Assembly: GCA_028717685.1 (NCBI GenBank)
Contig: JAQUNI010000001.1
Location: 207,451-271,450 of the forward strand
DNA: 64,000 nucleotides
Source of the DNA: Patescibacteria group bacterium
GTDB taxonomy: Bacteria > Patescibacteriota > JAQUNI01
Reading direction: 5' to 3'
Part shown: one piece after another, positions 575 to 60,615 of the stretch
Position numbering within the stretch: the first letter of the stretch is position 1
How the letters are laid out: every line of letters starts with the position of its first letter
Position numbers and translations under genes: made by a program
The notes under the pieces: model-generated
Told to the model about the DNA's origin: nothing
Database searches by the model: none
The model's input: only the letters and a program-made list of their open reading frames with translations

Positions 575-1273
575 GGGTTTCACCCGATTTTGGCTCAAAT
601 AAAGCTCTTTTTTCCTGATAGGGGGTTAAACCCCTCTTTGTCTCCCCTTGTCTGGGGAGATGTTTGGATTATCCATTATTCTAAGACTATCAATAATTCT
701 TTGCTTAGGCAGAGAAGCAAGAGCGGTGAAGATCAAACAGAGTTGAATAAAAATCATCTACGATCCTCGTTGGTCTTCACCGTTTGCGGATTCAGAAATC
801 TTGTCTTGGATCCCCATCCAAAGGGGAGGAATTTTCTGAACCTTCTAAATCCCACATCACAAAAATCTGAAATTTAGAAGATTGGTGAGCTGGTTTTGCC
901 TAGGTGTTTTCTAATCCCTAGAAAAGTTACTTTCCAAATCTTGTTGGAGCAAGAATTAATTTGAATGAACATATATATAAATTTTCCCTGCCCCAACTGG
1001 ACTTGAAAATAACTTTTTTGATATTTTGTTTGAAGTGGTATTATATCATAATCGCATATTTTTGTCAAGAGTATATTCTCTTTTATAACAAAAAATGGCT
1101 TAGATAAGCCGAATTTGAATCGTGAATAATGAATCAGGAATTAGGAATTAGAGAATTTTTAATTTAGATGTCTTAATTAAACCATTGATGATTTTGTGCA
1201 CTTTTATTGTTTGTTCGGCAATTTTTAAAAAGTCCTCCTTTACAATATATCGGACATCACGAGCGATAATCAA

Positions 1274-1531
1274 TTAATTCTGCAATTCAGTAACCGATCC
1301 CTGCGCTCTAGAATAAAAACAAATTTTATCTTTATAGGTCTGACGGCTGAAACCTTCGGCAATATTAGAAGTGATTGAAACTACACAACGACGCATTTGG
1401 CTCACTAAACCAAACATCTCTTCTTTGGGAAATTTTTTGGTAATTTCGTAAACCATTAAAACTAACTTGTGCCCTTCTTTCCAAGCATCTAAATCCGTGA
1501 ATGACTTAATTTTCTTTAATTCATTATTCAT
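1274..1531 (-). CDS. four-helix-bundle protein (23S rRNA intervening-sequence protein family, PF05635-like), C-terminally truncated copy (85 aa; last helix missing)
   Basis: Family motifs DLDAWKEGHKL...LVSQMRRCVVSITSNIAEGFSRQ; paralog of the intact 118-aa copy at 11162..11518; the N-terminus MNNELKKIK is encoded by the ATTC-heptad repeat arm; possible pseudogene. Confidence 0.6.
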   Translation of the reverse strand: MNNELKKIKSFTDLDAWKEGHKLVLMVYEITKKFPKEEMFGLVSQMRRCVVSITSNIAEGFSRQTYKDKICFYSRAQGSVTELQN

Positions 1532-1558
1532 AATTCATAATTCCTGATTCATGATTCC

Positions 1559-2737
1559 CTATTCTCCCCTCAACGCTTCCACGGGATCCATCCTGCTTGC
1601 CCGAAACGCAGGATAAAGACCGGACAATAGACCCACAAGCGTGGCAAAAACAATAATACTGCCTATAAGCCACCAAGGCAGAGCGAATAAATCAACTTGA
1701 GTTTGGACAATGTTTTGCGCGGCAATGTAATTATTGAGCAGAGAACTTAAAATTAAAGTAATGCCCCAGCCACAGAGCACGCCAAAAAAACCGCCGATAA
1801 AACCAATCGCGGAAGCTTCCAAACTGAAAATTTTTAAAATGTCCCGCCGCGACGCGCCGACCGCGCGCATCACCCCAATCTCACGAGTGCGCTCTAGGGT
1901 AGCCATAATCATCGTATTGATAATCCCGAGGGAAGCGACGCCCAAGATGATAATCCCCACGCTTCCGAGAGCAAGTTCTAAAATCCTGAAATATTTGGTC
2001 ACGCGGTCAACTAAATCATCTAAAGCGACTGCTTCCAGCCCCATCCCCTTAATTTCTTTGCTAATCCCCGCGACCTTTTGCACGGAATTTGCCTTCACCC
2101 GCAGACTATCATAAGTTACCATCTTTTTAATCTCGCTCGCCTGGGTCAAAGGGATAAAAACCCCATAGCCCAAGATATTCTCTCCCCGAGCCACGCCGAC
2201 AATTTTTAAAACTAAATTCTTTTGACCGAAGGTCAGATTTAAAGATTTACCTAAAAATCTCTCCGGGTAATCGCTGGAAAACTCTTTCAAAAAATTCTCT
2301 CCTATGACAGCGCTTTCCCCTGCCAAGCTTGAAGCGGGACTACCAGCGATCAATTTAAAAACATCCGTCGCCCCTGACGGCACGGCAGTAACTAAGGTCT
2401 TGCCTACGTTTTTTTCAAAACCGCTCAAGGATACCTCATCAGCCATCAAAGTAACCATCGGATCCACCCGCGCGACATCAGGCAGGCTTTCCAGCTTGCT
2501 GATTGTTTCGGAGTCCAGAAGCCGATTCCCATCCTCTTTTTGATAAACATTAATGTCCGTTAATTCTCCTGTGTCTTTCAGGCCTTTAACGACGATCTGC
2601 TGCAAACCCACGCCCAAAGAAACCATAGAGCTAATTAAAGTCGTGCCAATAAGAATCGCGAAGGTTGTTAAAACCGTGCGCAACTTGCGGCGGCGCAGAT
2701 TTTTAAAAGAAAATAATATTGCTGAAGAAAGCTTCAT
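1559..2737 (-). CDS. ABC transporter permease, FtsX/MacB-like
   Basis: N-terminal TM helix, large periplasmic loop, C-terminal FtsX-like 4-TM block; adjacent to the cognate ATPase. Confidence 0.8.
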   Translation of the reverse strand: MKLSSAILFSFKNLRRRKLRTVLTTFAILIGTTLISSMVSLGVGLQQIVVKGLKDTGELTDINVYQKEDGNRLLDSETISKLESLPDVARVDPMVTLMADEVSLSGFEKNVGKTLVTAVPSGATDVFKLIAGSPASSLAGESAVIGENFLKEFSSDYPERFLGKSLNLTFGQKNLVLKIVGVARGENILGYGVFIPLTQASEIKKMVTYDSLRVKANSVQKVAGISKEIKGMGLEAVALDDLVDRVTKYFRILELALGSVGIIILGVASLGIINTMIMATLERTREIGVMRAVGASRRDILKIFSLEASAIGFIGGFFGVLCGWGITLILSSLLNNYIAAQNIVQTQVDLFALPWWLIGSIIVFATLVGLLSGLYPAFRASRMDPVEALRGE

Positions 2738-6788: not shown

Positions 6789-6944
6789 ATTTTTAATTTT
6801 TATTCCTTATTTTTTAACTAATTTTTATTGAATTATTGTTTTATTTGTGATGTCAATAAAAATTTCTGCCCAAGGCGGATCAGCCTAGGGCTGAAAGAAA
6901 CAAAAATTCGTTAAAAATTAAAAATCAAAAAATAAAAATTATAA

Positions 6945-8698: not shown

Positions 8699-8702
8699 GG
8701 AT

Positions 8703-8950: not shown

Positions 8951-8957
8951 GATTCAT

Positions 8958-10024: not shown

Positions 10025-11104
10025 TCACAAATACTTCTTCTGCCCATTCTTCTCCAATGTCTCCACAATCTTTTTTACATCCTGCGACCGATCCTTGGGA
10101 CAGATTAACAAAATATCTTCCGTGTCAATAACCACCATATCGCGCATACCGATAGTAGCCACTAATTTTTTAGCGGGCGCATAAATTAAACTGCCGTCCG
10201 TATCCAAACCAACGTGATGGCACTTGATGTAATTCTCGGCTTGGCCGTGCGTCAAAATTTCCTTGACCGCCTGCCATTGCCCCACATCAGACCAGCCAAA
10301 TTCAGCGGGAATGGTTAAAATATTTTTGGTTTTTTCCACAATGCCATAGTCCACGGAGATGGGCTTAATCTTGCTGTACTCTTGGTTTAAAACTTTTTTT
10401 TCTTCCTTTGTGCCAATGGCTTTCTGAATCTTCCTTAATTTTTTATAAGTGTCGGGAAGATATTTTTCAAAAAGCGCGACCAAGGACTTCGCTTTCCAAA
10501 AAAACATCCCCGAATTCCATAAATATTGGCCTGAAGCGATATAGCGTTGGGCGGTTTTTAAATCCGGTTTTTCCACAAAACGTTTCACATAATAAACAGC
10601 GTCCTTGCCTCGCTTTTTTAAAAGACGGCTGCGTTCAATATAGCCATAGCCGGTTTCAGGATAAGCCGGATTCATGCCCAAAATCACCGTGTATTCCGGC
10701 CTCTCCGCAACAATCTGTTCAGCCAATTTTGCCACCCGGCGGTATTCATCTTCATCCAGAATATAATGGTCAGAGTAGACGCAAGACATCACTGCCTCCG
10801 GATCCCGTTTTTCCAAAATCATTGCCGCGAGGCCTAGAGCTGCCGCTGTATCTTTGCGTTCCGGCTCCAAAGAAAAATTGGAAAGCGAAAGAGAAGGAAG
10901 TTGTTTTCTAATATCCTTAAAATTTTTCCGCCCCGTGGTAATGAGGATATGTTTTTTATCCACGGCTTTGGCTAGACGGGTGAAAGTTTTTTGTAAAAGC
11001 GTGCGGTTGCCAATAATGGCTTGGGATTGTTTGGGTTTAGCCTTGCGGCTTACAGGCCAAAGGCGCGTCCCCGTTCCGCCCGCCATAATCACGGCGTAGA
11101 ACAT
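10025..11104 (-). CDS. mannose-1-phosphate guanylyltransferase-like sugar nucleotidyltransferase
   Basis: Nucleotidyltransferase G-loop AVIMAGGTGTRLWP; the track ORF extends to 11152, but Met17 (MFYAVIMAGG) is the likelier start. Confidence 0.75.
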   Translation of the reverse strand: MFYAVIMAGGTGTRLWPVSRKAKPKQSQAIIGNRTLLQKTFTRLAKAVDKKHILITTGRKNFKDIRKQLPSLSLSNFSLEPERKDTAAALGLAAMILEKRDPEAVMSCVYSDHYILDEDEYRRVAKLAEQIVAERPEYTVILGMNPAYPETGYGYIERSRLLKKRGKDAVYYVKRFVEKPDLKTAQRYIASGQYLWNSGMFFWKAKSLVALFEKYLPDTYKKLRKIQKAIGTKEEKKVLNQEYSKIKPISVDYGIVEKTKNILTIPAEFGWSDVGQWQAVKEILTHGQAENYIKCHHVGLDTDGSLIYAPAKKLVATIGMRDMVVIDTEDILLICPKDRSQDVKKIVETLEKNGQKKYL

Positions 11105-11585
11105 AGAAATAAAGTTAAAAGGTAAAGTGCAAAGTGCAAAACTAAAGCGCAAAGTTCAAAATTATTTCCTTCCCTTAAGAGTTAGTAAGCTTGCTCCGAG
11201 TATTTTTGCTAGTTCCTCTACTTCTTTTAGAAGTAAACTAATTTCTTCCTTTGGGAATTTAGTCGCATCTCTTAGTAAACCTAACCAATACTTTGTTTCG
11301 TTTGCTGACTTTAAGGCAATTTCATAAAATCTAGTAAAATCCCTTTTAGAACTCGCAGCCTGGGCTTCTATAATGTTTGCTCCTACTGAAGTAGCTGATC
11401 TCAAAAGTTGATCTGCAATTATCCGAAAAATATTTTGGCTAGGTAATTTACTAACAAATTTAATAATCTGAATTGAAAAATAATATGCACGATATTTAAG
11501 TTGTTGTTTAACTTCCATAACTTTTACGCTTTAAGCTGTGGTTTTGCCTTTTGCACTTTGCCTTTTGCACTTTTACTAATGGCAC
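11105..11585. mobile_element. heptad-palindromic element carrying a four-helix-bundle protein gene (inverted GCAAAGT/ACTTTGC repeat arms flank the cargo ORF)
   Basis: Left arm aaggtaaagtgcaaagtgcaaaactaaagcgcaaagttcaaaa; right arm gccttttgcactttgccttttgcactttt; inserted between manC-like and pcm, overlapping the pcm stop by 11 nt. Confidence 0.5.
11162..11518 (-). CDS. four-helix-bundle protein (23S rRNA intervening-sequence protein family), intact 118-aa copy
   Basis: Family motifs ...LLRSATSVGANIIEAQAASSKRDFTRFYEIALKSANETKYWLGLL... Confidence 0.8.
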   Translation of the reverse strand: MEVKQQLKYRAYYFSIQIIKFVSKLPSQNIFRIIADQLLRSATSVGANIIEAQAASSKRDFTRFYEIALKSANETKYWLGLLRDATKFPKEEISLLLKEVEELAKILGASLLTLKGRK

Positions 11586-14925: not shown

Positions 14926-15092
14926 TTTAAAGAAACTGTGAACAACTTAAAACAAAAAACGCCTTTAAATAAACAAGAGAGTGTTTTAATAAAGCGAAAG
15001 GCGAAAAGTGTAAAACGTAAAACCGCAACTTAAAGCTCAAAGCTTTACACTTTGCGCTTTGCACTTTGCGCTTTCATCTGTGGATAACTTTT

Positions 15093-15121
15093 TGACTCCT
15101 TTAATCAAGATAGTATATAAT
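15093..15121 (+). promoter_or_regulatory. sigma70-type promoter (TTGACT-17-TATAAT) for the SipW-locus gene at 15437
   Basis: ttgactcctttaatcaagatagtatataat; leaves a ~300 nt leader containing several terminator-like hairpins. Confidence 0.55.
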
Positions 15122-19111: not shown

Positions 19112-19906
19112 ATGATTAAGTTTGACCGCAAATTAAAACGAGTCCTCTTTTCTCCCCAAGAAAAAAGTTTTAGGACTAAATTATTTATTTTCTTAACAGG
19201 AGCAATAACCCTCGTTTTATTTTTCTTCGTTCTGCAAGAAGAAACAACGCGCGTCTCGGCGCAAGCCTTGCCTATTGCTGTCTCAATGAATCATATTGAT
19301 TTTGGTTTGGTCTTTCCCGGGGAGAGTCTGGAAAAAAACTTTATTGTTTATCTGGCCAATGGTCAAACCGAAAAAGTAAATTACAGTTTAATTCAAAGGA
19401 GAAAGCCCCTGCCGCCTGAATCCAAAATTGAGGAAGATCCAAATATGCCCGGTTTCTATCGCGACCTCTGCCCCTTTCTCACCAAAACCACCAAAGAGGG
19501 GGAAGGTGATTTGGAAATCGCAGCGTCGGTGACACCCACCACTGATCTTACCGATAAATGGCTGATTGACTTGGCAGTACCAGCGTTGGAAGGCTATGTG
19601 GCTCAAGAACACGGTGATAAGATAGTGAAGATTGCCGGCGACTATGGCTGTGATATCGTGATTGATATTGAGTCGAATGGTAATGGTACAGACGGAAATG
19701 GAGCTGGCGGCGGTCCAGAATGGTTTTGGCAGGATATGAATCTTGCGGGAGCCATGGAAATAGCTACCTCTCCAATCAAAAAAGTTGTGCAGGCAGCAGT
19801 CAAATTACCGGCTAAACTCCCCCGCGTTGGCGCGTGGGGCAGCCTTATTGCCGCCTCAATGGGCTTAATCGCGACAGCAGCCTTTTATAGAAGGAATAAA
19901 AAGTGA
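19112..19906 (+). CDS. secreted protein, candidate SipW-cognate TasA/camelysin-like: signal-anchor, 'IDFGLVFPGESLEKNFIVYLANG' segment, WLIDL...GCD motif, Gly/Asn-rich segment, C-terminal hydrophobic helix plus basic tail
   Basis: IDFG..PGE...F.V.LANG resembles the TasA N-terminal NLKPGD...F.F.NNG; DKWLIDLAVPALEGYVAQE...GCDIVIDIE is shared with 15437..16657; C-terminus GSLIAASMGLIATAAFYRRNKK looks like a membrane anchor. Confidence 0.55.
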   Translation: MIKFDRKLKRVLFSPQEKSFRTKLFIFLTGAITLVLFFFVLQEETTRVSAQALPIAVSMNHIDFGLVFPGESLEKNFIVYLANGQTEKVNYSLIQRRKPLPPESKIEEDPNMPGFYRDLCPFLTKTTKEGEGDLEIAASVTPTTDLTDKWLIDLAVPALEGYVAQEHGDKIVKIAGDYGCDIVIDIESNGNGTDGNGAGGGPEWFWQDMNLAGAMEIATSPIKKVVQAAVKLPAKLPRVGAWGSLIAASMGLIATAAFYRRNKK

Positions 19907-19936: not shown

Positions 19937-19965
19937 AACACCCCTAAAGAATAAGAGGGTGTTTT
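19937..19965 (+). terminator. intrinsic terminator (AACACCCC...AGGGTGTTTT family)
   Basis: aacacccctaaagaataagagggtgtttt; same stem and loop family as 14747..14776. Confidence 0.6.
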
Positions 19966-19968
19966 AAT

Positions 19969-20093
19969 TAATTTTCAATTTTCATTAAATTTTCAATGTA
20001 TTAATTTTCAAACTTTTTTGTTGATGAAAGTTTTTAAAAATTAAAAATTAAAAGAATTTAATAGAAATTAGAAATTGAAAATTAAAAATTATT
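19969..20093. repeat. heptad-repeat palindromic element (TTTCAAT / GAAATTA arms)
   Basis: aattttcaattttcattaaattttcaatg ... aatttaatagaaattagaaattgaaaattaaaaatta. Confidence 0.6.
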
Positions 20094-20431
20094 CGTCTGT
20101 GGATAACTTTCTTGAATCAAATCTTAAACAAAAATATAATAAAAGTGCGTGTTTCCGCTAGTGTCAAATATTGTCATGCCGTTCTTTCGCTCCTTAGCGT
20201 CTAGCGCCAAAAGGAGCAATTGCTTATCCGCCTTTTTAGGACAAAGGCGGACACCATGCCTCTTGGAGAACTTATATTTTTTATGCGCGTGTTGAGTAAG
20301 TTTTCCAAGAGCGCTTTTTTTTGACAAAAAAAATTAAAAATGGTATTATAGAAAGGCTTTATTCTAAGAACTTGTTATTATTCTTGCTATTATTTTGGTA
20401 CATTTTATTTCAAAAATAAGGAGAGCAAAAA

Positions 20432-22371: not shown

Positions 22372-22380
22372 GAAAATAAA

Positions 22381-22494
22381 ATTTCTAATTTTCAATTTCT
22401 AATTTCTATTAAATTTTCAATGAATCAATTTTTAGGCAGTTTAAAAATTAAGAAATTAGAAATTTAATAAAAATTAAGAAATAAAAATTAAAAA
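22381..22494. repeat. heptad-repeat palindromic element (TTTCTAAT / GAAATTA arms) between tRNA-Trp and rpmG
   Basis: atttctaattttcaatttctaatttctattaaattttcaatg ... aaattagaaatttaataaaaattaagaaataaaaattaaaaatta. Confidence 0.6.
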
Positions 22495-22656
22495 TTATTT
22501 CTTTACTTCTTTATGCAAGATGTGCTTGCGGCAATGGCGGCAGTATTTTTTTAATTCCAGTTTTTTCGCCTGCGGATCCTTCTTGTTGCGGCGGGTGAAA
22601 TAATTGATATTCTTGCACGCCGTGCATTGCAGGCGAACTAAAGTTTTTTGGGGCAT
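22495..22656 (-). CDS. rpmG: 50S ribosomal protein L33
   Basis: Not in the ORF track (53 aa); translation [53 protein letters not shown] with the L33 Cys4 zinc ribbon; the conserved rpmG/tRNA-Trp neighbourhood is present. Confidence 0.85.
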
Positions 22657-22767: not shown

Positions 22768-22864
22768 TAAAAAGGAATCATATATTATGAATCAGGAATT
22801 ATGAATGGGGAAAATTATGAATAAAAAAAATAATTCATTATTCCCGATTCCCTATTCCTTATTC

Positions 22865-22947
22865 CATGATTGTGGGGAGAGCAGGATTTGAACCTGCGTA
22901 GCCCGAAGGCGCGAGTTTTACAGACTCGAGCAATTGACCACTCTGCC
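22865..22947 (-). tRNA. tRNA-Tyr (anticodon GUA), long variable arm
   Basis: Acceptor GGGGAGA/TCTCCCC, anticodon loop CTGTAAA, long variable arm, T-loop TTCAAAT. Confidence 0.75.
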
Positions 22948-23092
22948 ATCTCCCCGTCTTCAAGTTAAAAGTCCAGAGTTCAAAATTCAAAGTTGAATCC
23001 AAAGTTCAAAGTTAAATTCCTGAGATTTTAAATTTTTAACTGTAACTTTTAACTTTGCACTTTGAACTTTTAACTATTTTTGAGCCGAGGAG

Positions 23093-23164
23093 AGGATTCG
23101 AACCCCCAACCTTGGCTTTACAAAAGCCCTGCTCTACCTTTGAGCTACCTCGGCAAAAGGGAAT
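23093..23164 (-). tRNA. tRNA-Thr (anticodon UGU)
   Basis: Acceptor GCCGAGG/CCTCGGC, D-arm GCTC-AAAGGTA-GAGC, anticodon loop TTTGTAA, T-loop TTCGAAT. Confidence 0.75.
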
Positions 23165-23248
23165 AATGAATCAGGAATTATGAATGAGGAAAATTATGAA
23201 TAAAAAAAATAATTCATTATTCTCCAATTACCAATTACTAATTACAGA

Positions 23249-27062: not shown

Positions 27063-27123
27063 TATTTGTTTTGACCCCGTTAGAAACATGCCCCGCCCCG
27101 TTAGAAAAAATTTTCTAACGGGG
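27063..27123. repeat. 'CCCCGTTAGAAA' palindrome (12-bp perfect arms) with a partial extra half-site, between rpmE and prfA
   Basis: gaccccgttagaaacatgccccgccccgttagaaaaaattttctaacggggttgac; same arm sequence recurs at 32404, 36153-36232 and 51957. Confidence 0.7.
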
Positions 27124-27234
27124 TTGACTAAATTGAGCTGTAAATAGCAGGGGCGGACCAGTGTGTCCGCCCGGTTTCGGGTTAACAGGAGATTGCGGGT
27201 TGACACATGGGTCAATCCCTACAATTTTATCTTT

Positions 27235-29265: not shown

Positions 29266-29276
29266 TGGTGCCCTAA

Positions 29277-29452
29277 GTTATTTATTTTGTCATTGCGAGG
29301 AGGGCTTATAGTCAGATCCCTCGCTTCCGCTCGGGACAGGCTCCGTAATCTCATCGAGCTATATTTATACAGATCTAGGAGATTGCTTCGGGCTCCGCCT
29401 AGGGCGGATCCCTCGCAATGACGGTATATTTCGTAATTCAAGGTAGGCTACG
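29277..29452. mobile_element. MITE-like GC-rich element with ~40 nt terminal inverted repeat (ACCTTGAATTACGAAAT...TGTCATTGCGAGGAGGG), copy A
   Basis: Right end ccctcgcaatgacggtatatttcgtaattcaaggtagg; internal ggagattgcttcg and gctcgatgagattacggagcctgtcccgagcggaagcgaggg shared with the copies at 34232 and 50212; no ORF. Confidence 0.6.
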
Positions 29453-29454
29453 AA

Positions 29455-32396: not shown

Positions 32397-32403
32397 ATTT
32401 GTA

Positions 32404-32436
32404 AACCCTGTTAGAAATTTATTTCTAACAGGATGA
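32404..32436. repeat. 'CCTGTTAGAAAT' palindrome immediately upstream of the rplY start
   Basis: ccctgttagaaatttatttctaacagg. Confidence 0.6.
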
Positions 32437-32625
32437 ACTTTCTCAAATATCCCTTTAAAAGTCTGCCTTTTAAAGGGAATATAAGCTCAATTTAATAATA
32501 AGACGAAATTCCTCTGTAACTCAAGTTGCGTATTTTAGCGAGGGAAAATAAAATCCCTTTAAAATCTGCATTTGCGGTAGACAAACCTGCCCGCTAGCCT
32601 AGCGGCAGCTTAGACAGGCGGGTTC

Positions 32626-34223: not shown

Positions 34224-34231
34224 AAAAACCT

Positions 34232-34440
34232 TGAATTATGAAATGCGTCGTCTATTAGCGAGAGATCCGCCCTAGGCGGAGACCAAAGCCCGCCCGCCTC
34301 GCCTGAAGCGAAGCGATGGCGGGCAGGCAATCTCCTAAATCTGTATGAATAACAGCTCGATGAGATTACGGAGCCTGTCCCGAGCGGAAGCGAGGGATCT
34401 GACTATAAGCCCTCCTCACTAATAGGCAAAATGAATTCCG
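34232..34440. mobile_element. MITE-like GC-rich element, copy B (opposite orientation to copy A)
   Basis: Contains gctcgatgagattacggagcctgtcccgagcggaagcgagggatctgactataagccctcctc (revcomp of copy A's internal segment) and TIR-like ends aaccttgaattatgaaatg... / ...gaattccgcgattcaaggt. Confidence 0.55.
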
Positions 34441-34510
34441 CGATTCAAGGTAAAAAGCGGAAGGTTTAAAATCCCAAACCCAAAATCACGATTTTTAAAC
34501 TTTAAAGTAT

Positions 34511-36155: not shown

Positions 36156-36232
36156 ACCCTGTTAGAAATTTATTTCAAATGGAGCTAACGGTTTTCGCTG
36201 ACCCCGTTAGATAAGTAAACATCTAACGGGGT
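36153..36232. repeat. 'CCCCGTTAGA' palindromes (two copies) immediately upstream of dnaE
   Basis: ccctgttagaaatttatttc...gagctaacgg and ccccgttagataagtaaacatctaacgggg. Confidence 0.6.
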
Positions 36233-36254
36233 AAATAAAATAACACGCAGTTTT

Positions 36255-41543: not shown

Positions 41544-41753
41544 TAATTTTTAATTTTCAATTTCTAATTTTCATTAAATTTCCATTTACTTAATTTTTAA
41601 ACAAATAAAAATCAAATTCTCTTAACCCGCTTACCATAGAATCCGAAAGTTTAAAAATTATTTCATTAAAAATTTAATAAAAATTGCCACACCTAACGGG
41701 TGGTCACCCATTAGGGTGAAAAATTATAAATTAGAAATTTTATTTACATAAAT

Positions 41754-43732: not shown

Positions 43733-45115
43733 ATGCAAACCTATTTTTTAAAAACTTTCGGCTGCCAAATGAACCAGTCGGACGCGGAGCGGATTGCCGC
43801 GGTTTTAGAAAAAGCAGGGCTCACTTTATCTTCTGAAAAAGAAGCAGATATTTTAATCGCCAATGTTTGCGCGGTGCGGCAGCGAGCAATGGATCGGGTT
43901 TACGCCCTGGTGAATAAATGGCAAAAACGGAAAGATGCAAAAATTATCCTCACAGGCTGCATCTTAGAAAAAGATAAAAAATTGTTCTGCGATAAGGCGC
44001 ATGGTATTGTTCCCATAGGCGCGATTGCGAAACTGCCACAAATCATTAAAGATGGAGACGCGAAACATTGCATCTCTATAAAATCATATTTGGGAATAAA
44101 ACCAAAACATCATAATTCCTTTTCGGCTTATGTGCCGATTATGACCGGCTGCAATAATTTCTGCGCTTACTGCGTTGTCCCCTACACGCGAGGCAGAGAA
44201 ATTTCAAGACCGGCGGATGAAATTATAAAGGAGGTGCGAAGTCTTATAAAGATTGGATATAAAGAAATTATCCTGCTTGGACAGAATGTGAATTCATACC
44301 AGAGTAAACTCAAATGTCAAAACTCAAATGCCAAAACTACAACTCAAAACTCAAAACTAATAAATTTCCCAAAGTTATTGCAAATGATAGATAGCATAAC
44401 GGGTAATTTTTGGATTGGATTTATTACCTCGCATCCTAAAGATATGTCAGATAAGTTAATTAACACAATTGCGCGATGTAAAAAGGTTTGCAAATATATC
44501 CATTTACCAATCCAATCAGGAGATGATGGGATTTTGAAAAGGATGAACCGAAAATATACGGTTGCGCATTATTTGGGTTTAATAAAGAAAATCCGCTCCA
44601 GAATCCCGAAGGTGGCGATTTCCACGGATGTCATTGTCGGCTTTCCTGGCGAAACCAAAAAGCAATTTGAAAATACGGTCAAAGTTTTTAAAAAAGTAAA
44701 ATTTGATATGGCTTATATTGCCCAATATTCCCCGCGTCCTGGCACAGCCGCGGCGAAATTCAAAGATGACGTCAAAAGCCAAGAAAAAAAACGGAGATTT
44801 CAAATCTTAAATCAATTGCTCAAAAAGATTGCGCTGGAAAATAATCAAAAATTAGTGGGGAAAGAAATGGAAATTTTAGTGGAGCAATATGAGAAAGGAT
44901 ATTGCGTAGGAAAAACGCGCGCTTTTAAAAATGTGAAATTTAGAAATAATGGGAAGAAAAATTTGGAAGGTGAATTTGTGAAGATAAAAATCGCAAAAGC
45001 AACGGCGTGGGGATTAGAAGGGAATATTTCTCCCCTGACAAGGGGAGATAAGAGAGGGGTTAATAAAAAACCGCAAAATCTTTTTTTCAAGACTTTGCGG
45101 CAAAGAACGCAATGA
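43733..45115 (+). CDS. miaB: tRNA methylthiotransferase MiaB-like (radical SAM, MTTase family)
   Basis: N-terminal MTTase domain MQTYFLKTFGCQMNQSD; radical SAM CNNFCAYCVVP; TRAM domain; in-frame low-complexity insertion QSKLKCQNSNAKTTTQNSKL. Confidence 0.85.
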   Translation: MQTYFLKTFGCQMNQSDAERIAAVLEKAGLTLSSEKEADILIANVCAVRQRAMDRVYALVNKWQKRKDAKIILTGCILEKDKKLFCDKAHGIVPIGAIAKLPQIIKDGDAKHCISIKSYLGIKPKHHNSFSAYVPIMTGCNNFCAYCVVPYTRGREISRPADEIIKEVRSLIKIGYKEIILLGQNVNSYQSKLKCQNSNAKTTTQNSKLINFPKLLQMIDSITGNFWIGFITSHPKDMSDKLINTIARCKKVCKYIHLPIQSGDDGILKRMNRKYTVAHYLGLIKKIRSRIPKVAISTDVIVGFPGETKKQFENTVKVFKKVKFDMAYIAQYSPRPGTAAAKFKDDVKSQEKKRRFQILNQLLKKIALENNQKLVGKEMEILVEQYEKGYCVGKTRAFKNVKFRNNGKKNLEGEFVKIKIAKATAWGLEGNISPLTRGDKRGVNKKPQNLFFKTLRQRTQ

Positions 45116-48444: not shown

Positions 48445-48648
48445 TTTCGAACGAGAAAAATAATAAATTCTTTTGAAAATTGGGGAAAATTTTTGTAATT
48501 TCCTTTGCCACATAAAAGAATTTATTATCTCTACACACTGTTCTTATTTTAACCTTTTCTATAAAACTGTCAAGCGCCGCCATTCTGGCTTAGATAAAAG
48601 AAAAATAAAAAAACTGGGGATAACCTTAATAAAGTTGTCCACAGTTTT

Positions 48649-50109
48649 TTATTTCAATTTTTCCCTTATCAAATCCTGCACTATCTGCGGATTTGCGCGA
48701 CCACCTGTTTTGCGCATCACCTGCCCCACGAGAAACATAAGGGTTTTTGCATTGCCAGCCCGCAAATCCTCCACGGGTTTAGGGTTCTCTTTGACTACTT
48801 CTTCAATAATCGCATTCAACTGCTCTACATCACTCACCTGCGCTAAATTTTTCTCGGCAATCACTTGCGAAGGATCCGCGCTCTTCTCAAACATTTCTTT
48901 TAAAACAATCTGCGCCGCGGAGGAATTTATCTCCCCGCGAGACACGATATTCATAAATTCGGCGAAATTTTCGGGCGTGATTTTTAAATGGCTAATACTG
49001 ACTTTGTTCACCCTTAATAATTTCTGTAATTCCGTTACCACCCAGTTCGCCGCGAGTTTAGATATTTTTTGACCTTGATCTTCTGCCGCCGCTTCGGAAA
49101 CCACTTGCTCATAATAATCGCCTAGGGCTTTATTATTGACTAAGGCGCTAATATCTTCAGGTCCCAAGCCATATTCCGCCTTCAGCCTTTTTCTTCTATG
49201 GACCGGCAGTTCTGGCATTTGAGCCCGCATTGCTTCTACAATTTTTTTGAGCCTTAAAGGCGGCAAGTCTGGCTCTCCAAAATAACGATAGTCATGCGCT
49301 TCTTCTTTCGTCCTCTGCTCCCGCGTAATCCCCTTGCGATCATCCCAGCCTCGGGTAATTTTACCTTTTTCTTTCTTTAGCGCCGCGAACTCATCCGTCT
49401 GTCTATCCACTTCATAAGCTAAAGCTTTTTCCACCATCTTGAAGGAATTTAGATTTTTAATTTCCACGATGGGCGTTTTAGCATTCCCAGATTTAATATT
49501 AACATTAGCATCGCACCGCAGTTCTCCTTTTTCCATATCCGCATTGGAAACCCCCAAGTAACGCATAATGAGGCGCAGCTCCCGCAAAAAAGCTCCGGCT
49601 TCTTCAGGGGAAGTGATATCGGGTTCCGTCACAATTTCCATCAAAGGCGTTCCTCCGCGATTATAATCCACTAAGCTGTAACTTTTGTCTTCGGCGTGCA
49701 AATTTTTTGCCGCGTCCTCTTCAAGGTGCACCCTCCTGATGCTAATCTTATGACCATTAATCTCTAAATAACCATTGACTGCGATAGGCATATCGTATTG
49801 GGAAATCTGATACCCCTTAGGCAAATCCGGATAAAAATAATTCTTGCGGTCAAATTTGCTTTCTTTCGGTATTGCACAATTTAAAGCGATGCCCGTTAAG
49901 ACAGTCCATTCCACAGCCTTTTTATTAATCACGGGTAAAACCCCCGGATGCCCCAAACAAATTGGGCAAATGTTTTCATTCGCTTGTTTGTTTGTAATAT
50001 CATTATCGCACGCGCAAAACATCTTGCTTCGGGTTTTGAGCTGAACGTGAATTTCTAAACCGATAATGGTTTTAAATGATGGCATTGTTTCATTGTTGAA
50101 TTGTTTCAT
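48649..50109 (-). CDS. gatB: aspartyl/glutamyl-tRNA(Asn/Gln) amidotransferase subunit B
   Basis: GatB N-terminal signature IIGLEIHVQLKTRSKMFCACDND; the track ORF extends to 50160; start likely Met18 (50109) or Met26 (50085). Confidence 0.9.
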   Translation of the reverse strand: MKQFNNETMPSFKTIIGLEIHVQLKTRSKMFCACDNDITNKQANENICPICLGHPGVLPVINKKAVEWTVLTGIALNCAIPKESKFDRKNYFYPDLPKGYQISQYDMPIAVNGYLEINGHKISIRRVHLEEDAAKNLHAEDKSYSLVDYNRGGTPLMEIVTEPDITSPEEAGAFLRELRLIMRYLGVSNADMEKGELRCDANVNIKSGNAKTPIVEIKNLNSFKMVEKALAYEVDRQTDEFAALKKEKGKITRGWDDRKGITREQRTKEEAHDYRYFGEPDLPPLRLKKIVEAMRAQMPELPVHRRKRLKAEYGLGPEDISALVNNKALGDYYEQVVSEAAAEDQGQKISKLAANWVVTELQKLLRVNKVSISHLKITPENFAEFMNIVSRGEINSSAAQIVLKEMFEKSADPSQVIAEKNLAQVSDVEQLNAIIEEVVKENPKPVEDLRAGNAKTLMFLVGQVMRKTGGRANPQIVQDLIREKLK

Positions 50110-50211
50110 TGTTAATTTTAACAGAAAATGAGCTGAAAGGCAAAATAAAAAACTGGCCAAGTTGACCAGCTTAAGATGGAGATATTATTTTTATCCCCTC
50201 AATTATTGATA

Positions 50212-50362
50212 AACCTTGAATTACGAAATTCATTTTGTCGTTGCGAGGAGGGCCTTAAAGCCCGACGAAGCAATCTCATTAAGTGATATTTATGCCTAAT
50301 TTAGGAGATTGCTTCGGTCGGCATCAAATGCCTCCCTCGCAATGACAATACATTTCGTAATT
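50212..50362. mobile_element. MITE-like GC-rich element, copy C, with a clean ~40-nt TIR
   Basis: Left aaccttgaattacgaaattcattttgtcgttgcgaggagggcc; right cctccctcgcaatgacaatacatttcgtaattcaaggta; internal palindrome cccgacgaagcaatctc...ggagattgcttcggtcgg. Confidence 0.65.
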
Positions 50363-50388
50363 CAAGGTATAATAATATCTTTAAATAT

Positions 50389-51870: not shown

Positions 51871-52046
51871 AGAATTAAATTTTCAATTTCTAATTTTCAA
51901 TTTTCATTAAATTTTTAATGAATCAATTTCTAAACAAATAATTTTCAAACTGTTTGCCCCGTTTAGAAATTTGTCATTTCTAACGGGGTTTTAAAATTAA
52001 AACATTGAAAATTTAATAGAAATTAGAAATTAAGAAATTAGAAATT
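51871..52046. repeat. heptad-repeat palindromic element with an embedded CCCCGTTTAGAAAT/ATTTCTAACGGGG hairpin (51957-51990)
   Basis: aattttcaatttctaattttcaattttcattaaattt ... aaatttaatagaaattagaaattaagaaattagaaatt. Confidence 0.65.
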
Positions 52047-52725: not shown

Positions 52726-53340
52726 TCACTTAATCCCTTCGGGCTCCGCTCGCAATGAAGGGCGATTATTATTCCGATTATTTAACTCCATAATTTGATC
52801 TGTTATTTCTTTTTCGGTTAAGACCTTTTGCCCCTGGCCATATTGCTCTTTGTCGTCAATGACATCCGCGATCTGCCAATCGTGCACCCAGTCCTCAATC
52901 CTGAAAATCCGACAACCCCCATCGCGAGTAGAGCAAATCATATGCGCGAGTCCCGCATTAATCACAATTTTCTTACAAATAAAACAAGGCAAGGCATCAA
53001 TCACCTCGCCTTGCTCGTCCGCGGCGTACAAATACATATCTCCGCCCAGCACGGACACGCCGGCGCGGCTCGCGTTGACAATCGCATTTTGCTCCGCGTG
53101 CACCGAGCGGCAAAGCTCGTAGCGATGACCGTGGGGAATGCCAAGTTTAGTTCGAAGACAAAAACCATGCTCATAACAATCCTTGCCTTTGCGGATCGCG
53201 CCGATGTATCCAGCGGAGATCATTTGGTCGTCGCGGACAATAATCGCACCCATGATGCGACGATAACACCTTGTTTTCCGCGATACCTCGCGGGCAATGT
53301 TCATATAATACTCGTCTTTGGATAGTTTTCTCGTTTCCAT
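52726..53340 (-). CDS. dCMP deaminase (zinc-dependent CDA fold)
   Basis: HAEQNAI and PCFICKKI zinc-ligand motifs; probable start at METRKLSK. Confidence 0.8.
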   Translation of the reverse strand: METRKLSKDEYYMNIAREVSRKTRCYRRIMGAIIVRDDQMISAGYIGAIRKGKDCYEHGFCLRTKLGIPHGHRYELCRSVHAEQNAIVNASRAGVSVLGGDMYLYAADEQGEVIDALPCFICKKIVINAGLAHMICSTRDGGCRIFRIEDWVHDWQIADVIDDKEQYGQGQKVLTEKEITDQIMELNNRNNNRPSLRAEPEGIK

Positions 53341-53450
53341 TTTGATTTTTCTTCCCCTCCTTGAAGGAAGCACTTTTTTTATTTTAACATATTGGTTTAT
53401 TTTAGCACAATTCTTTAAAAAAACAAAAAACCGGAGATATCCGGTTAGAT

Positions 53451-53771
53451 TTAAGAAGTTTCAATGAGGTGAAAATTCAATATACTTTCCTGATTATTAG
53501 TCCGTATCGGCTTACCCGAATGATCATCGGGTAATCTTACAATTTCCCAAGAAATATAGACATAAAATTCTTCTTCCCCAATTTTCACCAGAAATGCCCC
53601 ATGATCCTTTCCAGCTATTCTCCTCCAGCGAGGCATATTTGCCACCACTGATTCAACTTGCCCGTAAATCGACAACACCTCTTCTTTTTCAAAATGAGCT
53701 TTGCGAAAAAAAAGATTGCCACATCCCCACCACCATGAACTTTTATCAATAACCGCATCAGTTCCTTGCAT
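53451..53771 (-). CDS. hypothetical protein (106 aa)
   Basis: ORF; no family recognised. Confidence 0.35.
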   Translation of the reverse strand: MQGTDAVIDKSSWWWGCGNLFFRKAHFEKEEVLSIYGQVESVVANMPRWRRIAGKDHGAFLVKIGEEEFYVYISWEIVRLPDDHSGKPIRTNNQESILNFHLIETS

Positions 53772-53855
53772 TACGCAGCCTCCTTTCTTTTGATCATTGC
53801 CATCGTGCCTGCCTTACTAATATTTACACTAAATTTTCCTTTATAGGTGAACCAT

Positions 53856-54545
53856 TTAATTCCTCACCCGGACCCCCGGTCCCATAGTGGAACAGACAGA
53901 GATAGAATTCACAAGCTCCCCTTTCTGTCCTTCTGGAGCTTGTTTTTTTACTGTTTCTAAAAGAACCTTAAAATTATTTGCTAATTCTGCCTCGGAAAAA
54001 GACATCTTGCCAATCACCTGATGCACAATCCCCTGTTCATCGGATTTAAACGAAATCTTGCCCGAGGCAAACTCTTTGATTGCCGCAATAATATTGGGGG
54101 TCACTGTCTCACTCTTGGGGTTCGGCATTAAACCTTTTTGACCCAAGAGCTTGCCGATTTGCCCCAAATGCCGCATCATCGCCGGTTCGGCTAGGGCTAA
54201 ATCAAAATTAACCTTCTGGGTTGTCTTGATTTTTTGCACCAATTCTTCGCCGCCCGCAATGGCGGCGCCGGCTTCTTTTGCTTCTTTCATCTTTTCAGGA
54301 GTCACAAAAGCGGCAATCCTTCGGCTCTTGCCCCAACTTTTCGGAAAAACAATCGTGCCGCGGACTACTTGCGTGCCGCTTTTTTTATCTAAATTCAGTT
54401 TAATATGCGCTTCAATGGATTCGTCAAACTTTGCGTTCGCCCCTTCCTTCACTTTCTTCACCGCCTCTTCAATCTCAAAAATTCTCTTTTCTTCCTGGGA
54501 AAGTTTATTTTTTAAATTTTGATAACGTCTAGAATGCTTGGACAT
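53856..54545 (-). CDS. rplA: 50S ribosomal protein L1
   Basis: L1 signatures ...RGTIVFPKSWGKSRRIAAF...; start at MSKHS. Confidence 0.9.
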   Translation of the reverse strand: MSKHSRRYQNLKNKLSQEEKRIFEIEEAVKKVKEGANAKFDESIEAHIKLNLDKKSGTQVVRGTIVFPKSWGKSRRIAAFVTPEKMKEAKEAGAAIAGGEELVQKIKTTQKVNFDLALAEPAMMRHLGQIGKLLGQKGLMPNPKSETVTPNIIAAIKEFASGKISFKSDEQGIVHQVIGKMSFSEAELANNFKVLLETVKKQAPEGQKGELVNSISVCSTMGPGVRVRN

Positions 54546-54550
54546 ACACA

Positions 54551-54686
54551 AATTTTCAATTTCTAATTTTCAATTTTCATTAAATTTTTATTTAATAAAT
54601 TTTTAAACACCCCAACCAAACAAAACAGGAGGTTTAAAAATTAGTTCATTAGAAATTTAATAGAAATTAGAAATTAAAAATTATTT
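54551..54686. repeat. ~136-bp heptad-palindromic element, identical copy 1 of 2 (rplA|rplK spacer)
   Basis: aattttcaatttctaattttcaattttcattaaatttttatttaataaatttttaaacaccccaaccaaacaaaacaggaggtttaaaaattagttcattagaaatttaatagaaattagaaattaaaaattatttta is base-for-base identical to 55112..55247. Confidence 0.8.
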
Positions 54687-55106
54687 TATTATCTCAATCC
54701 CCATACTCCTCGCCGTCCCTGCGATTATCTTTTTTGCCTGTTCTAGATCATTGGCATTTAAATCCTGCATCTTGACCTTGGCAATTTCTTCAATTTGCAC
54801 TTCTGTAACCTTGCCCACCTTTTTTTTATTCGGCTCGCCCGAACCCTTTTTCACTTGCGCTATTTTCTTTAAAAGCTCTGCGGCGGGCGGAGTTTTCAGA
54901 ATAAAATCAAAAGTGCGGTCCTCATAAACCGTAATTTCCGCGGGGATGATCTCGTCCCCTTTATCTTTGGTCATCTCATTAAATTTGCTGCAAAAATCCT
55001 GAATGTTTAATCCGTGCTGACCCAAAGCGGGGCCTATAGGGGGAGCAGGATTTGCCTTACCTGCGGGGATCTGAAGTTTGATAATTGTTTTAATAGGCTT
55101 AGACAT
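54681..55106 (-). CDS. rplK: 50S ribosomal protein L11
   Basis: L11 N-terminal motif [27 protein letters not shown]. Confidence 0.95.
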
Positions 55107-55111
55107 GTAAA

Positions 55112-55247
55112 AATTTTCAATTTCTAATTTTCAATTTTCATTAAATTTTTATTTAATAAATTTTTAAACACCCCAACCAAACAAAACAGGAGGTTTAAAA
55201 ATTAGTTCATTAGAAATTTAATAGAAATTAGAAATTAAAAATTATTT
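55112..55247. repeat. ~136-bp heptad-palindromic element, identical copy 2 of 2 (rplK|nusG spacer)
   Basis: Identical to 54551..54686. Confidence 0.8.
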
Positions 55248-55792
55248 TAGATTTTTTTGATCTGTAAAAAGTCTAACTCTACTGGCGTTTCCCGGCCAAA
55301 CATATTCACCAGGACCTTGATCTTTCCCCGCTCTTCATCAAGATGAGAAACTTTCCCGTCAAAACCCTTAAAGGGTCCGTCAATAATTTTGACCGCCTCG
55401 CCAATCTCCACATCAATTTTATATTTCGGCTCGGTAACGCCCATCCTCTTTTTCAAAGACTTAATCTCTTCATCAGAAATCGGTGTCGGCGTAGTTCCAG
55501 AACCAACAAAGCCGGTCACATTAGGGGTATTCCTAACCACATACCAAGAATCATCGGTGACAACCATTTCCACTAAAACATAGCCGGGAAAAATCTTCTC
55601 TTCAATCACTTTCCGCCGGCCATTCTTAATCTTAATCTTTTTCTCTTTAGGCACTAAAACATCAAAGATTTTGTCCTCCATATCCAAGGACTCAATTCTC
55701 TGGCGAAGATTATGGGCTACGTTTTCCTCGTAACCAGAATAGGTGTGAAGCACATACCAACGTCGTTCTTGCTCCCCTAATTGCTTGGGCAT
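55247..55792 (-). CDS. nusG: transcription termination/antitermination factor NusG
   Basis: NGN domain WYVLHTYSGYEENV; KOW motif. Confidence 0.9.
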   Translation of the reverse strand: MPKQLGEQERRWYVLHTYSGYEENVAHNLRQRIESLDMEDKIFDVLVPKEKKIKIKNGRRKVIEEKIFPGYVLVEMVVTDDSWYVVRNTPNVTGFVGSGTTPTPISDEEIKSLKKRMGVTEPKYKIDVEIGEAVKIIDGPFKGFDGKVSHLDEERGKIKVLVNMFGRETPVELDFLQIKKI

Positions 55793-55881
55793 ACACTTTA
55801 CCTAGCGCAAATAAAGGATTTATTTATCCGAGTCCCTTCGGATAATTTGTCCTTGACGCGCTTAAAAATTAAAATGATTTT

Positions 55882-56073
55882 TCAAAAAAGCTGACTTAAA
55901 GCAACTATCAAAAGATAATCTATAAAGCCCAAAAAGACAGCTACCGCTAAGCTAAAAATAATAACTATGTAGGTATGGCGAAACAACTCTGGCCGGGAGG
56001 GCCAAACCACTTTCGCAAGTTCGGTTTTGGATTCTTTGAAAAAAAGAATAATTTTATTCAAAAGGCGAGGCAT
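55882..56073 (-). CDS. secE: preprotein translocase subunit SecE
   Basis: 63 aa, KESKTELAKVVWPSRPELFRHT plus single TM; immediately upstream of nusG. Confidence 0.85.
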   Translation of the reverse strand: MPRLLNKIILFFKESKTELAKVVWPSRPELFRHTYIVIIFSLAVAVFLGFIDYLLIVALSQLF

Positions 56074-56082
56074 ATCTCTTGT

Positions 56083-56107
56083 TTTTAAAAAGCCCGCAGG
56101 GGCTTTA
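56083..56107 (-). terminator. intrinsic terminator downstream of gyrB
   Basis: Revcomp AAAGCCCCTGCGGGCTTTTT. Confidence 0.6.
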
Positions 56108-56245
56108 TTACCCTAAGTATATACTAAATAAAAAAAATTGGCAAGACCCTCACTTTTATCTAAGGTCTTCACCTTTAGGATCCACCCTTAGCTAAAGATG
56201 GATCCTTTATGAAAGGTGAAGACTAAAGGCGAAAGGTCTTTATAA

Positions 56246-58385
<2,140 letters not shown>

Positions 58386-60452: not shown

Positions 60453-60615
60453 GAAAAAATTTCTAATTTTAAATTCCAAATTTTAATTCAAATCCCCGCC
60501 CGCCATCGCTACGCTCTAGGCGTTAGCGGGCAGGCAAATTTTAAATTTTTTAATTTTAAAACCCTTTCTTCTTTCCCTTGGTTTTAAAATTTAAAATTGA
60601 GAATTAAAAATTCTT

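Follow-up and report, generated by a model that had tools for sequence, protein, structure and literature searches.

In a 64-kb stretch of a metagenome-assembled genome (MAG) from a Patescibacteria bacterium (the window; all coordinates are window positions), the gene of ribosomal protein L11, rplK, is bracketed by two identical hairpin repeats that fill the spacers separating it from nusG and from rplA. We consider it probable (about 60%) that these are two copies of a selfish or near-neutral element, composed of seven-nucleotide (heptad) units and resembling the intervening sequences (IVSs) of 23S rRNA, repetitive extragenic palindromic (REP) elements and miniature inverted-repeat transposable elements (MITEs), which have been homogenized by recombination. 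The evidence comes from the repeats themselves, from their numerous relatives in the window and from the same spacers in other genomes.

Two identical hairpin repeats bracket rplK

A preceding sequence-only reading of this DNA had pointed out a 136-bp identity between 54551-54686 and 55112-55247. Exact alignment bore this out, as both segments lie inside a match of 139 nt (54550-54688 and 55111-55249, 139/139 nt identical, offset 561). A repeat finder reported a longer stretch of 153 nt at 97% identity, the extension being due to the fact that both downstream genes begin with Met-Ser-Lys. Either copy takes up the whole spacer, starting at the stop codon of the upstream gene and stopping about 5 nt short of the next ATG, and the nusG stop codon sits in the repeat in a register unlike that of the rplK stop codon (cf. 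Table 1). The sequences adjoining the ends of the identity are CATACAC and TTATCTC for copy A and CATGTAA and GATTTTT for copy B. The pair, together with a 41-nt segment shared three ways with 51877-51917, accounts for all exact repeats of at least 40 nt in the window. The source is a MAG, and a short-read consensus may wipe out minor mismatches among nearly identical repeats. In each of two independent Logan assemblies of this organism, the contig ends within the shared arm, 32-34 nt ahead of rplA, which indicates that the arm is multi-copy; the 100% identity of the loops is not independently confirmed thereby. The organism also occurs in the sequencing runs SRR22315506 and SRR22315509.

The description of the element as a palindrome with heptad arms also held. 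Each copy is an imperfect palindrome of two 51-nt arms, 80% complementary, with 23 nt between them, and Tandem Repeats Finder (TRF) detected 4.1 units of AATTTTC and 3.3 units of TAGAAAT per copy; the GC content of the element is 16-18%. The gene-strand RNA is predicted to form a hairpin of about 49 bp with a folding energy of -32.3 kcal/mol, compared with -15.9 +/- 2.8 kcal/mol in shuffled sequences (z = -5.8), and the DNA fold of the element reaches -21 kcal/mol (z = -4.65). In the predicted RNA fold, CCUCC in the loop pairs with GGGG at the top of the stem, and the mRNA 3' arm of copy A stops about 5 nt before the rplA ATG.

The segment between the arms (the core) was found at these two window sites only, with none expected by chance. 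An exact search for it in metagenome contigs of the Joint Genome Institute (JGI) gave one match, on an unrelated high-GC contig where it forms a Shine-Dalgarno region, and was uninformative on mobility. A small open reading frame (ORF) starting from the antisense AGGAGG of the core was considered and rejected, as there is no ATG, GTG or TTG at a usable distance, but just a six-codon frame opening with ATT. The idea that the element donated the C-terminal Lys of RplK was likewise dropped, since the proteins of relatives also end in ...IK or ...VK.

Table 1. Coordinates of the rplK repeats, related elements, genes and operon signals in the window
Feature	Position	Strand	Remarks
Copy A, 139-nt repeat	54550..54688	-	Fills the rplK-rplA spacer; holds the rplK stop codon (54681-54683) and the last Lys codon
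Copy B, 139-nt repeat	55111..55249	-	Fills the nusG-rplK spacer, with the nusG stop codon (55247-55249) inside; fold as in copy A
Variable loop (core), copy A	54609..54631	-	mRNA strand CCUCCUGUUUUGUUUGGUUGGGG; equivalent in copy B 55170-55192
Left (+ strand) arm, copy A	54558..54608	.	AATTTTC/AATTTCT heptads, then ATTAAATTT...TTTTTAAAC; mRNA 3' arm; equivalent in copy B 55119-55169
Right (+ strand) arm, copy A	54632..54682	.	TAGAAAT heptads; mRNA 5' arm, begins in the rplK stop codon; equivalent in copy B 55193-55243
Third family copy, upstream of thyA	51871..52046	-	3' arm with 41 nt identical to the rplK copies (51877-51917); 5' arm diverged; loop with nested CCCCGTTAGAAA hairpin
Family copy, pheT-gyrB	58271..58385	-	No loop insert; pheT assigned by Pfam
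Family copy, pheS-pheT	60480..60615	-	Nested GC-rich palindrome
Family copy, upstream of thrS	41544..41753	+	Long loop; nested GC-rich hairpin in the 3' arm
Family copy, rpmG-tRNA	22372..22500	-	Same arm framework
Family copy, downstream of gene 19112-19906	19949..20090	+	Same arm framework
Family copy	6789-6941		Same arm framework
GGAATCA-type heptad inverted repeat	1116..1566	-	An ORF of PF05635 ('23S rRNA intervening sequence protein') forms the loop and has an in-frame TAA (copy at 1274-1531; the reading frame continues after it)
GCAAAAG/ACTTTGC-type heptad inverted repeat	11103..11575	-	Loop is an intact 118-aa PF05635 ORF; exactly between the PCMT and nucleotidyl-transferase genes
nusG	55247..55792	-	Orthologs in relatives with Pfam NusG
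rplK (L11, 141 aa)	54681..55106	-	93% identical to the best database L11; Pfam Ribosomal_L11_N and Ribosomal_L11; bracketed by both copies
rplA (L1, 229 aa, ATG at 54545)	53856..54545	-	Exact protein on two Logan contigs; Pfam Ribosomal_L1
Promoter-like site TTGCCA-17-TATACT upstream of secE	56116..56144	-	Consensus match; same motif in L004 and L098
Intrinsic-terminator-like hairpin	53429..53446	-	GC-rich stem and T run; downstream of rplA and ORF 53451-53771; conserved in L001

The arms belong to a family of heptad hairpins that is dispersed through the window

The arms of the pair are shared by at least seven further copies in the window (at least nine in all), and the loops of these copies differ. 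The framework of the family can be written as (AATTTCT)n-ATTAAATTTCTAATGA..TAATTTTTAAAC, a variable loop, and GTTTAAAAATT..ATTCATTAAAAATTTAATGAAAATT-(GAAAATT)n, where the loop ranges from none to about 60 nt and several copies hold a nested GC-rich mini-palindrome. As the core is unique and the arms are widespread, the core is just the loop of this particular pair.

The family is part of a far larger set of period-7 repeats. TRF found 49 period-7 and 21 period-14 arrays in the window; shuffled sequences with the local composition preserved gave about 2 and 0.5, respectively. The period-7 arrays cover 1568 of the 11486 non-coding bases (14%) and 180 of the 52514 coding bases (0.3%), so that about 90% of all period-7 bases are non-coding. 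The same architecture has been built elsewhere in the window from other heptads (GGAATCA, ACTTTGC/GCAAAGT, GTTACAA and CAATTAC). All spacers of the four-tRNA/rpmG cluster hold heptad hairpins, those at 22768-22872, 22956-23082 and 23155-23248 being of other unit types than the AATTTTC family, and hairpins occur within the operons pheST, prfA-prmC, thyA-folA and rplKA. A comparison of sense and antisense strands for 26 elements revealed no consistent bias in energy or in G-U pairs, a result that cannot show RNA-level structure and that is expected if the symmetry is kept at the DNA level. RNAalifold analysis of seven family copies was uninformative, most pairs being invariant and 3 of 31 showing double changes.

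Several smaller repeats accompany the heptad hairpins. GC-rich mini-palindromes (e.g., CCCGCC...GGCGGG) are nested in them, often in the 3' arm (60495-60535, 6865-6895 and 41680-41715; also L004:2924-2969 and L003:1163-1195, where labels of this form denote loci of other genomes), and the AT-rich hairpins seem to act as landing sites for this second class of mini-elements. Spacer hairpins of the form (A)CCCCGTTAGAAA ... TTTCTAACGGGG(T) recur at 27085-27135, 32400-32440, 36156-36250 and 51955-52000, one of them in the loop of the hairpin upstream of thyA. The sequence CTGTGGATAACTTT, which contains TGTGGATAA, the complement of the DnaA-box-like TTATCCACA, recurs right after heptad arrays and upstream of genes (15075-15095 and 20085-20105), and the related AAAGTTGTCCACAG is located at 48630 (48630-48648). 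Among the few heptad arrays in coding sequence is one of 7.7 units of AAACTCA at 44306-44358, in frame inside a radical-SAM/MiaB-like gene (43733-45115), where it forms a low-complexity insert, SKLKCQNSNAKTTTQNSKL.

The rplK spacers of relatives evolve in concert, and their hairpins are gained and lost

The best database matches of the window RplK (93%, 89% and 89% identity) place it in Patescibacteria, and the close orthologous loci of relatives were fetched through the closest RplK matches. An exact look-up of the window RplK found nothing. A scan of genome contigs with RplK retrieved distant relatives only (at most 75% identity); it served the search for an L1 mimic described below and not the comparison of close orthologs.

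Heptad palindromes are also present in rplK spacers of L001-L007 and L034. In L004-L007 (88% RplK identity), TTTTCAA-type palindromes occupy both spacers and are 93% identical to each other, and a GC-rich insert is nested in one of them. In L003, the element preceding rplA is of the TTTTCAA type, with a 5' arm largely swapped for GC-rich inserts, and the nusG-rplK spacer contains a hairpin of a different class (GCGAAAA/ACTTTGC-type). Palindromes stand before rplA in L001 and L002, and TTTTCAA-type palindromes flank rplK on both sides in L034 (Buchananbacteria, 70% RplK identity). The rplK spacers of L097 (81% RplK identity) measure just 9 and 8 nt and hold no hairpin, and those of L098 (80% RplK identity) measure 73 and 76 nt and hold one-sided heptad arrays. 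The copy upstream of thyA is missing at the orthologous junction of L004, where the spacer has 3 nt. Because the hairpin is absent in L097, has a disrupted arm in L003 and changes class at the same spacer, it appears to have no indispensable role, and it probably has no dedicated regulatory one.

The whole spacers of a pair are 98% identical within the window and 93% identical within L004, and between genomes the identity is about 0.75-0.88 of the aligned columns in what is low-complexity sequence. The closer likeness of pairs within a genome than between genomes bears the mark of concerted evolution. L005 (GCA_964479965.1; L005:3001-4021) has rplK twice in tandem with 0 differences in 423 nt, and the repeat at the junction is a hybrid of the flanking repeats. 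This arrangement is either the exact product expected from unequal crossing-over or an assembler loop.

The orthologous region of L002 (RplK 89% identical) also carries, between nusG and rplK, a 210-aa ORF without a Pfam match (L002:2031-2663) and an 18-nt remnant, ATAATTGAAAATTCTTTT, before rplK.

Sibling hairpins carry ORFs of the 23S rRNA intervening sequence protein family

Two of the heptad inverted repeats of the window enclose an ORF of PF05635, a family of four-helix bundle proteins (cf. Table 1); one of the two proteins has exactly the sequence of MDD5626607.1, a protein encoded in a MAG labeled Patescibacteria group bacterium. The same layout was seen on other Patescibacteria contigs, namely L090/L091 (L090:700-1260) and L092-L094 (L092:1410-2010). 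At all four loci examined, the PF05635 ORF lies in the loop of a heptad inverted repeat, the element fills an intergenic spacer, and the ORF is co-oriented with its neighbors. IVSs of 23S rRNA are inverted-repeat hairpins with or without an S23p ORF, which are cut by RNase III at mid-stem and are regarded as selfish and sporadically distributed (PMC4990558). The presence of PF05635 ORFs in the loops of sibling heptad hairpins makes the RNase III-cut IVS the closest analog of the rplK elements.

The hairpin neither supplies nor has displaced an L1-binding leader

The sequence-only reading had also proposed that the element replaced the autoregulatory leader of the L1 or L11 operon or provides its structure, and that an L1-binding-site mimic might be sought in the core. 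We found the motif GUGGGAG-variable hairpin-G-N4-5-ACCAC 10-25 nt before rplA in 18 other genomes, belonging to Patescibacteria, Peregrinibacteria, Gracilibacteria, Clostridia, Caldisericales and others (L009:6440, L013:6438, L014:6435, L020:6445, L026:6442, L034:6512, L065:6543, and 11 more). It also matches GGUGGGAG...UACCACC, the base of the L1 stalk of 23S rRNA. This candidate mimic agrees with the published description of the L1-interacting RNA, whose place is ahead of rplA in some phyla and ahead of rplK in others (PMC3616713).

A covariance model (R1) built from the 18 loci was run with filters off over 53000-57000 and gave nothing above 5.6 bits (E = 2.2), that match being within coding sequence; a pattern search found no L1 mimic near the operon either, and model R1 found none before rplA in L001-L007, L097 and L098. 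The L1 mimic has been lost from this sub-lineage. In L034, the heptad palindrome is followed by an intact mimic, and L097 has neither. Leader loss and hairpin presence are therefore independent, and the hairpin neither supplies the leader nor displaced it. Searches with Rfam agreed with this picture: over the whole window, which holds no rRNA gene, only four tRNAs were found at gathering level; at E<=10, the region 53700-56300 gave chance-level matches and no leader family near the elements. Among seven related loci, five of them with the mimic, no leader family was matched at the gathering threshold.

That the element is or contains the L1 or L11 autoregulatory leader, i.e., a mimic of the 23S L1 stalk that took the place of the canonical one, is hence scarcely credible. 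Its position agrees with that of L1-interacting RNAs (PMC3616713), both copies ending about 5 nt before the rplK or rplA ATG, and the canonical mimic is missing from the operon. The position is not diagnostic, though, as the same arm precedes thyA, and further copies of the family flank tRNAs, pheT, gyrB and thrS. The sequence-only reading had named, as evidence against its own interpretation, relatives that carry the sequence as a conserved leader instead of a mobile repeat. The comparison with relatives bears this out in part: a palindrome occurs at the same place and the final ~14 nt ahead of the rplA start codon are kept, but the rest is too variable for a conserved leader.

Both hairpins probably lie in one transcription unit

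The gene order on the minus strand is secE (55882-56073), nusG (55247-55792), rplK (54681-55106) and rplA (53856-54545). Going by the consensus matches of a promoter upstream of secE and a terminator downstream of rplA (cf. Table 1), we place both hairpins inside a single putative secE-nusG-rplK-rplA transcription unit. The promoter scan returned 13 sites where 10.3 were expected; a 10/12 match in copy B only (TTTACA-16-AATAAT, 55268-55241), which overlaps the nusG end and the 5' arm, is not significant. The reading of the elements as Rho-independent terminators was discarded, as they lack a GC stem and a T run, unlike, e.g., 53429-53446, and a scan of the window for terminator-like sites found none within either element.

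Between rplA and the operon terminator there is a 106-aa ORF (53451-53771) with a good Shine-Dalgarno sequence and no Pfam match, which gene calling also recovered on a Logan contig (L095:809-1129) from this organism. The genes rplJ-rplL are located 46 kb from rplK-rplA. The 259-nt spacer upstream of rplJ (8699-8957) has GGAATTA-type heptad arrays at both ends and, on the minus strand, a perfect TTGACA-17-TATAAT match followed by a GC-richer leader of about 100 nt; the L10 leader of Rfam had no gathering-threshold match in this spacer.

Origin of the pair and alternative explanations

The following scheme would account for the observations. Heptamer arrays would arise and expand, possibly by polymerase slippage, which is a published hypothesis; some arrays would become inverted arms, be gained and lost between close relatives, and host smaller GC-rich palindromes. 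Direct repeats 561 bp apart would then be homogenized by gene conversion or by cycles of unequal crossing-over. The operon mRNA would carry two hairpins of about 49 bp, each of which would begin at the stop codon of the preceding cistron and end about 5 nt short of the following ATG, and the likeliest fate of the stems would be RNase III cleavage, as in the IVSs of 23S rRNA, whereby the operon mRNA would be cut into cistrons.

Homogenization of resident repeats fits better than two fresh transpositions. Of the two origins that the sequence-only reading had offered for the identity, gene conversion, or more broadly recombinational homogenization, is the one we retain, given that pairs within a genome are closer than those between genomes, and recent transposition of a distinct mobile element is the one we abandon, the arms being those of a family and the core its variable loop. 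A MITE-like element that moved recently and independently into both spacers would explain the terminal inverted arms, the multiple copies, the presence/absence polymorphism among relatives and the perfect identity of the copies. We nevertheless hold it to be quite improbable. The loop occurs in none of the other family copies of the window (at least nine copies in total) and has no informative JGI match, which makes it unlikely that a consensus element landed twice; the element replaces an entire spacer instead of adding to one; and relatives already hold paired palindromes of lineage-specific sequence at the same two sites. No direct repeat that could be a target-site duplication (TSD) is visible in the flanks at the ends of the identity of either copy, although the true ends of the element could differ, and the Pfam domains of window ORFs of at least 70 aa include no transposase. 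An assembly artefact, that is, a repeat collapsed or looped in the MAG, is very improbable as the cause of the duplication or of its perfect identity. The MAG source, the breaks of short-read assemblies of the same organism within the repeat and the possibly artefactual rplK duplication of L005 speak for it. Against it, the gene order and spacer lengths match those of several independently assembled relatives with palindromes on both sides of rplK, and the flanks of the copies differ and are unique, with rplK between them, so that at most a few single-nucleotide differences between the copies would have been erased.

A more serious alternative, which we nonetheless judge unlikely, is that the hairpins are selected intercistronic RNA elements: processing sites for RNase III or another nuclease, stabilizers of mRNA ends, or devices for translational coupling, in which the 3' arm by the ATG would become free only after the base of the stem has been opened by a ribosome that terminates at the stop codon upstream. 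It is favored by (i) stems that start inside the upstream stop codon and stop ~5 nt short of the next ATG at both sites, and likewise at thyA, gyrB and the S23p-type elements; (ii) the hairpins in every spacer of the tRNA/rpmG cluster and inside pheST, prfA-prmC, thyA-folA and rplKA; (iii) the persistence of hairpins in the rplK spacers across several lineages and the conservation of the last 14 nt before rplA; and (iv) three adjacent compensatory changes between the arms of the window and those of L004 (ATTAAATTT/AAATTTAAT versus AAACAATTT/AAATTGTTT). Compensatory changes in a DNA palindrome can, however, also stem from arm-to-arm repair or from replacement of the element, and L097 has the same genes with hairpin-free spacers of 8-9 nt. 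The arm of L003 is broken by insertions, the hairpin class differs among relatives at the same spacer, the sense strand has no G-U bias, and covariation within the family is weak (3/31 pairs). Nor is the missing Shine-Dalgarno sequence a special trait of these sites, which we had considered, since it is present in only ~12 of the 64 genes of the window.

Several points weigh against a selfish or near-neutral repeat homogenized by recombination. Palindromes persist in both rplK spacers from 93% down to 70% RplK identity (L034), and the window shares with L003-L007 exactly the same final 14 nt ahead of the rplA ATG. Either observation could point to selection instead of tolerance. The gene conversion is deduced from identity patterns in two lineages only, and the rplK duplication of L005 could be an assembly loop. 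No copy of the AATTTTC family in the window bears an ORF, and the connection with IVSs is therefore one of architecture and not of sequence. The absence of a visible TSD, mentioned above, counts here too, as does the fact that neither a transposase nor a RAYT or rnc gene was found among the ORFs of the 64-kb window.

One wider conjecture, which we regard as doubtful, is that heptad hairpins, as long AU-rich stems set precisely between cistrons and tRNAs, might serve throughout Patescibacteria as IVS-like punctuation, cut by RNase III to yield monocistronic RNAs, and that the PF05635 (Avd-like) proteins encoded in some loops might spread, maintain or regulate them.

Relation to known repeats and RNA elements

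The 23S rRNA IVSs of Salmonella, Leptospira, Coxiella and others share with the heptad hairpins a compact build in which inverted repeats form a long stem and the loop is either short or a PF05635 ORF. They differ in location, as IVSs reside in helix 25 or 45 of 23S rRNA and the window elements in mRNA and tRNA spacers; moreover, the arms described here are AT-rich and heptad-periodic, the rplK copies lack an ORF, and their cleavage is only predicted. The heptameric simple sequence repeats (SSRs) or short tandemly repeated repetitive (STRR) sequences of Calothrix and Nostoc, and GGGAATC of Xanthomonas, are likewise tandem heptanucleotides strongly over-represented between genes and in some cases organized in inverted pairs that can fold into stem-loops. 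In Xanthomonas and Nostoc, such intergenic repeats keep their position but vary in sequence, and polymerase slippage is a proposed source of them (PMC4692102). With 4.1 + 3.3 period-7 units per element, an over-representation of period 7 and an intergenic location, the rplK elements fall within this description. Published SSR/STRR sequences are, however, G-rich or mixed heptamers from other phyla, mostly in one-sided arrays, whereas the window arrays are nearly all complete palindromes that fill operon-internal spacers, form dispersed families, have conserved inner arms without heptads, and are associated with PF05635.

REP/REPIN sequences and MITEs resemble the elements in being multi-copy, intergenic and palindromic, in varying among relatives, in receiving nested insertions and in acting as recombination substrates. 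In contrast to REPs, which are 20-40 bp long, GC-rich and mobilized by RAYT, the element is 139 nt long with 16-18% GC, and the window encodes no RAYT/Y1 transposase. Terminal inverted repeats (51-nt arms, 80% complementary) and multiple copies that are present in some genomes and absent from others (L097 and the thyA junction of L004) were found as in MITEs, but MITEs have TSDs and a parent insertion sequence, whereas no TSD was seen here and no transposase was found in the window. With the L1-interacting RNA, a short stem with a conserved G-A bulge that mimics H77/78 of 23S rRNA, the elements have only the genomic position in common (PMC3616713), nothing like that structure being present in them or in the operon. 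Hairpin repeats of organelles (mitochondria of sponges, Volvox and fungi) likewise spread through intergenic spacers in genomes that are small and reduced, and they have been read as selfish; their sequences and hosts are unrelated, and they are not known to be heptad-periodic. Phage T7 early and late mRNAs carry intercistronic RNase III hairpins with stems of ~20 bp and a defined internal loop, the cleavage of which has been shown experimentally. The elements resemble these as intercistronic stem-loops of polycistronic transcripts but have AU-rich stems of ~49 bp and a cleavage that is predicted. A TIGR-Tas array, in which hairpin units with box C/D motifs and dual spacers adjoin a Tas (Nop-domain) gene (PMC12045711), was considered and rejected: the window has no protein with a Tas or Nop domain, the hairpins are scattered through housekeeping operons, and the loop contains no RUGAUGA/CUGA by eye. 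A limited literature search found no description of heptad hairpins in Patescibacteria.

Other repeats of the window

A separate repeat family of ~190-290 nt is present at 29266-29454, 34224-34510 and 50161-50388. A core rich in GC (GTCATTGCGAGGAGGGC ... CCCTCGCAATGAC) lies between its inverted ends (ACCTTGAATTACGAAAT / ATTTCGTAATTCAAGGT), the third copy having been checked at the inverted ends only. Period-8 arrays (TTGTTTCA / CATTGTTT) follow rplA in L003:1948-1990 and L004:4234-4262 and occur near the 5' end of gatB at 50083-50117; the short-period arrays of these genomes are thus not all heptads.

Implications

As to the duplicated pair itself, it is ordinary repeat biology. What surrounds it is that about one-seventh of the non-coding DNA of the window consists of heptad-periodic hairpin repeat, in a streamlined Patescibacteria genome on the scale of 0.7 Mb. 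These repeats stand inside textbook operons, and some of them carry the enigmatic PF05635 ORF that is otherwise known from 23S rRNA IVSs; heptad hairpins with IVS-protein ORFs that fill the operon spacers of a reduced genome are known kinds of element in a new form. They break short-read assemblies beside marker genes (L001, L095 and L096) and can create or mimic the duplication of a marker gene (rplK twice in GCA_964479965.1), so that estimates of completeness and contamination are affected; they also offer substrates through which the enclosed genes can be deleted or duplicated. An L1-binding mimic ahead of rplA is widespread, Patescibacteria included; the five carriers scanned were not matched by Rfam leader models at the gathering threshold. 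If the hairpins did act as punctuation, the family named '23S rRNA intervening sequence protein' would gain a role, and it would be explained why this lineage could do without the canonical L1 feedback leader.

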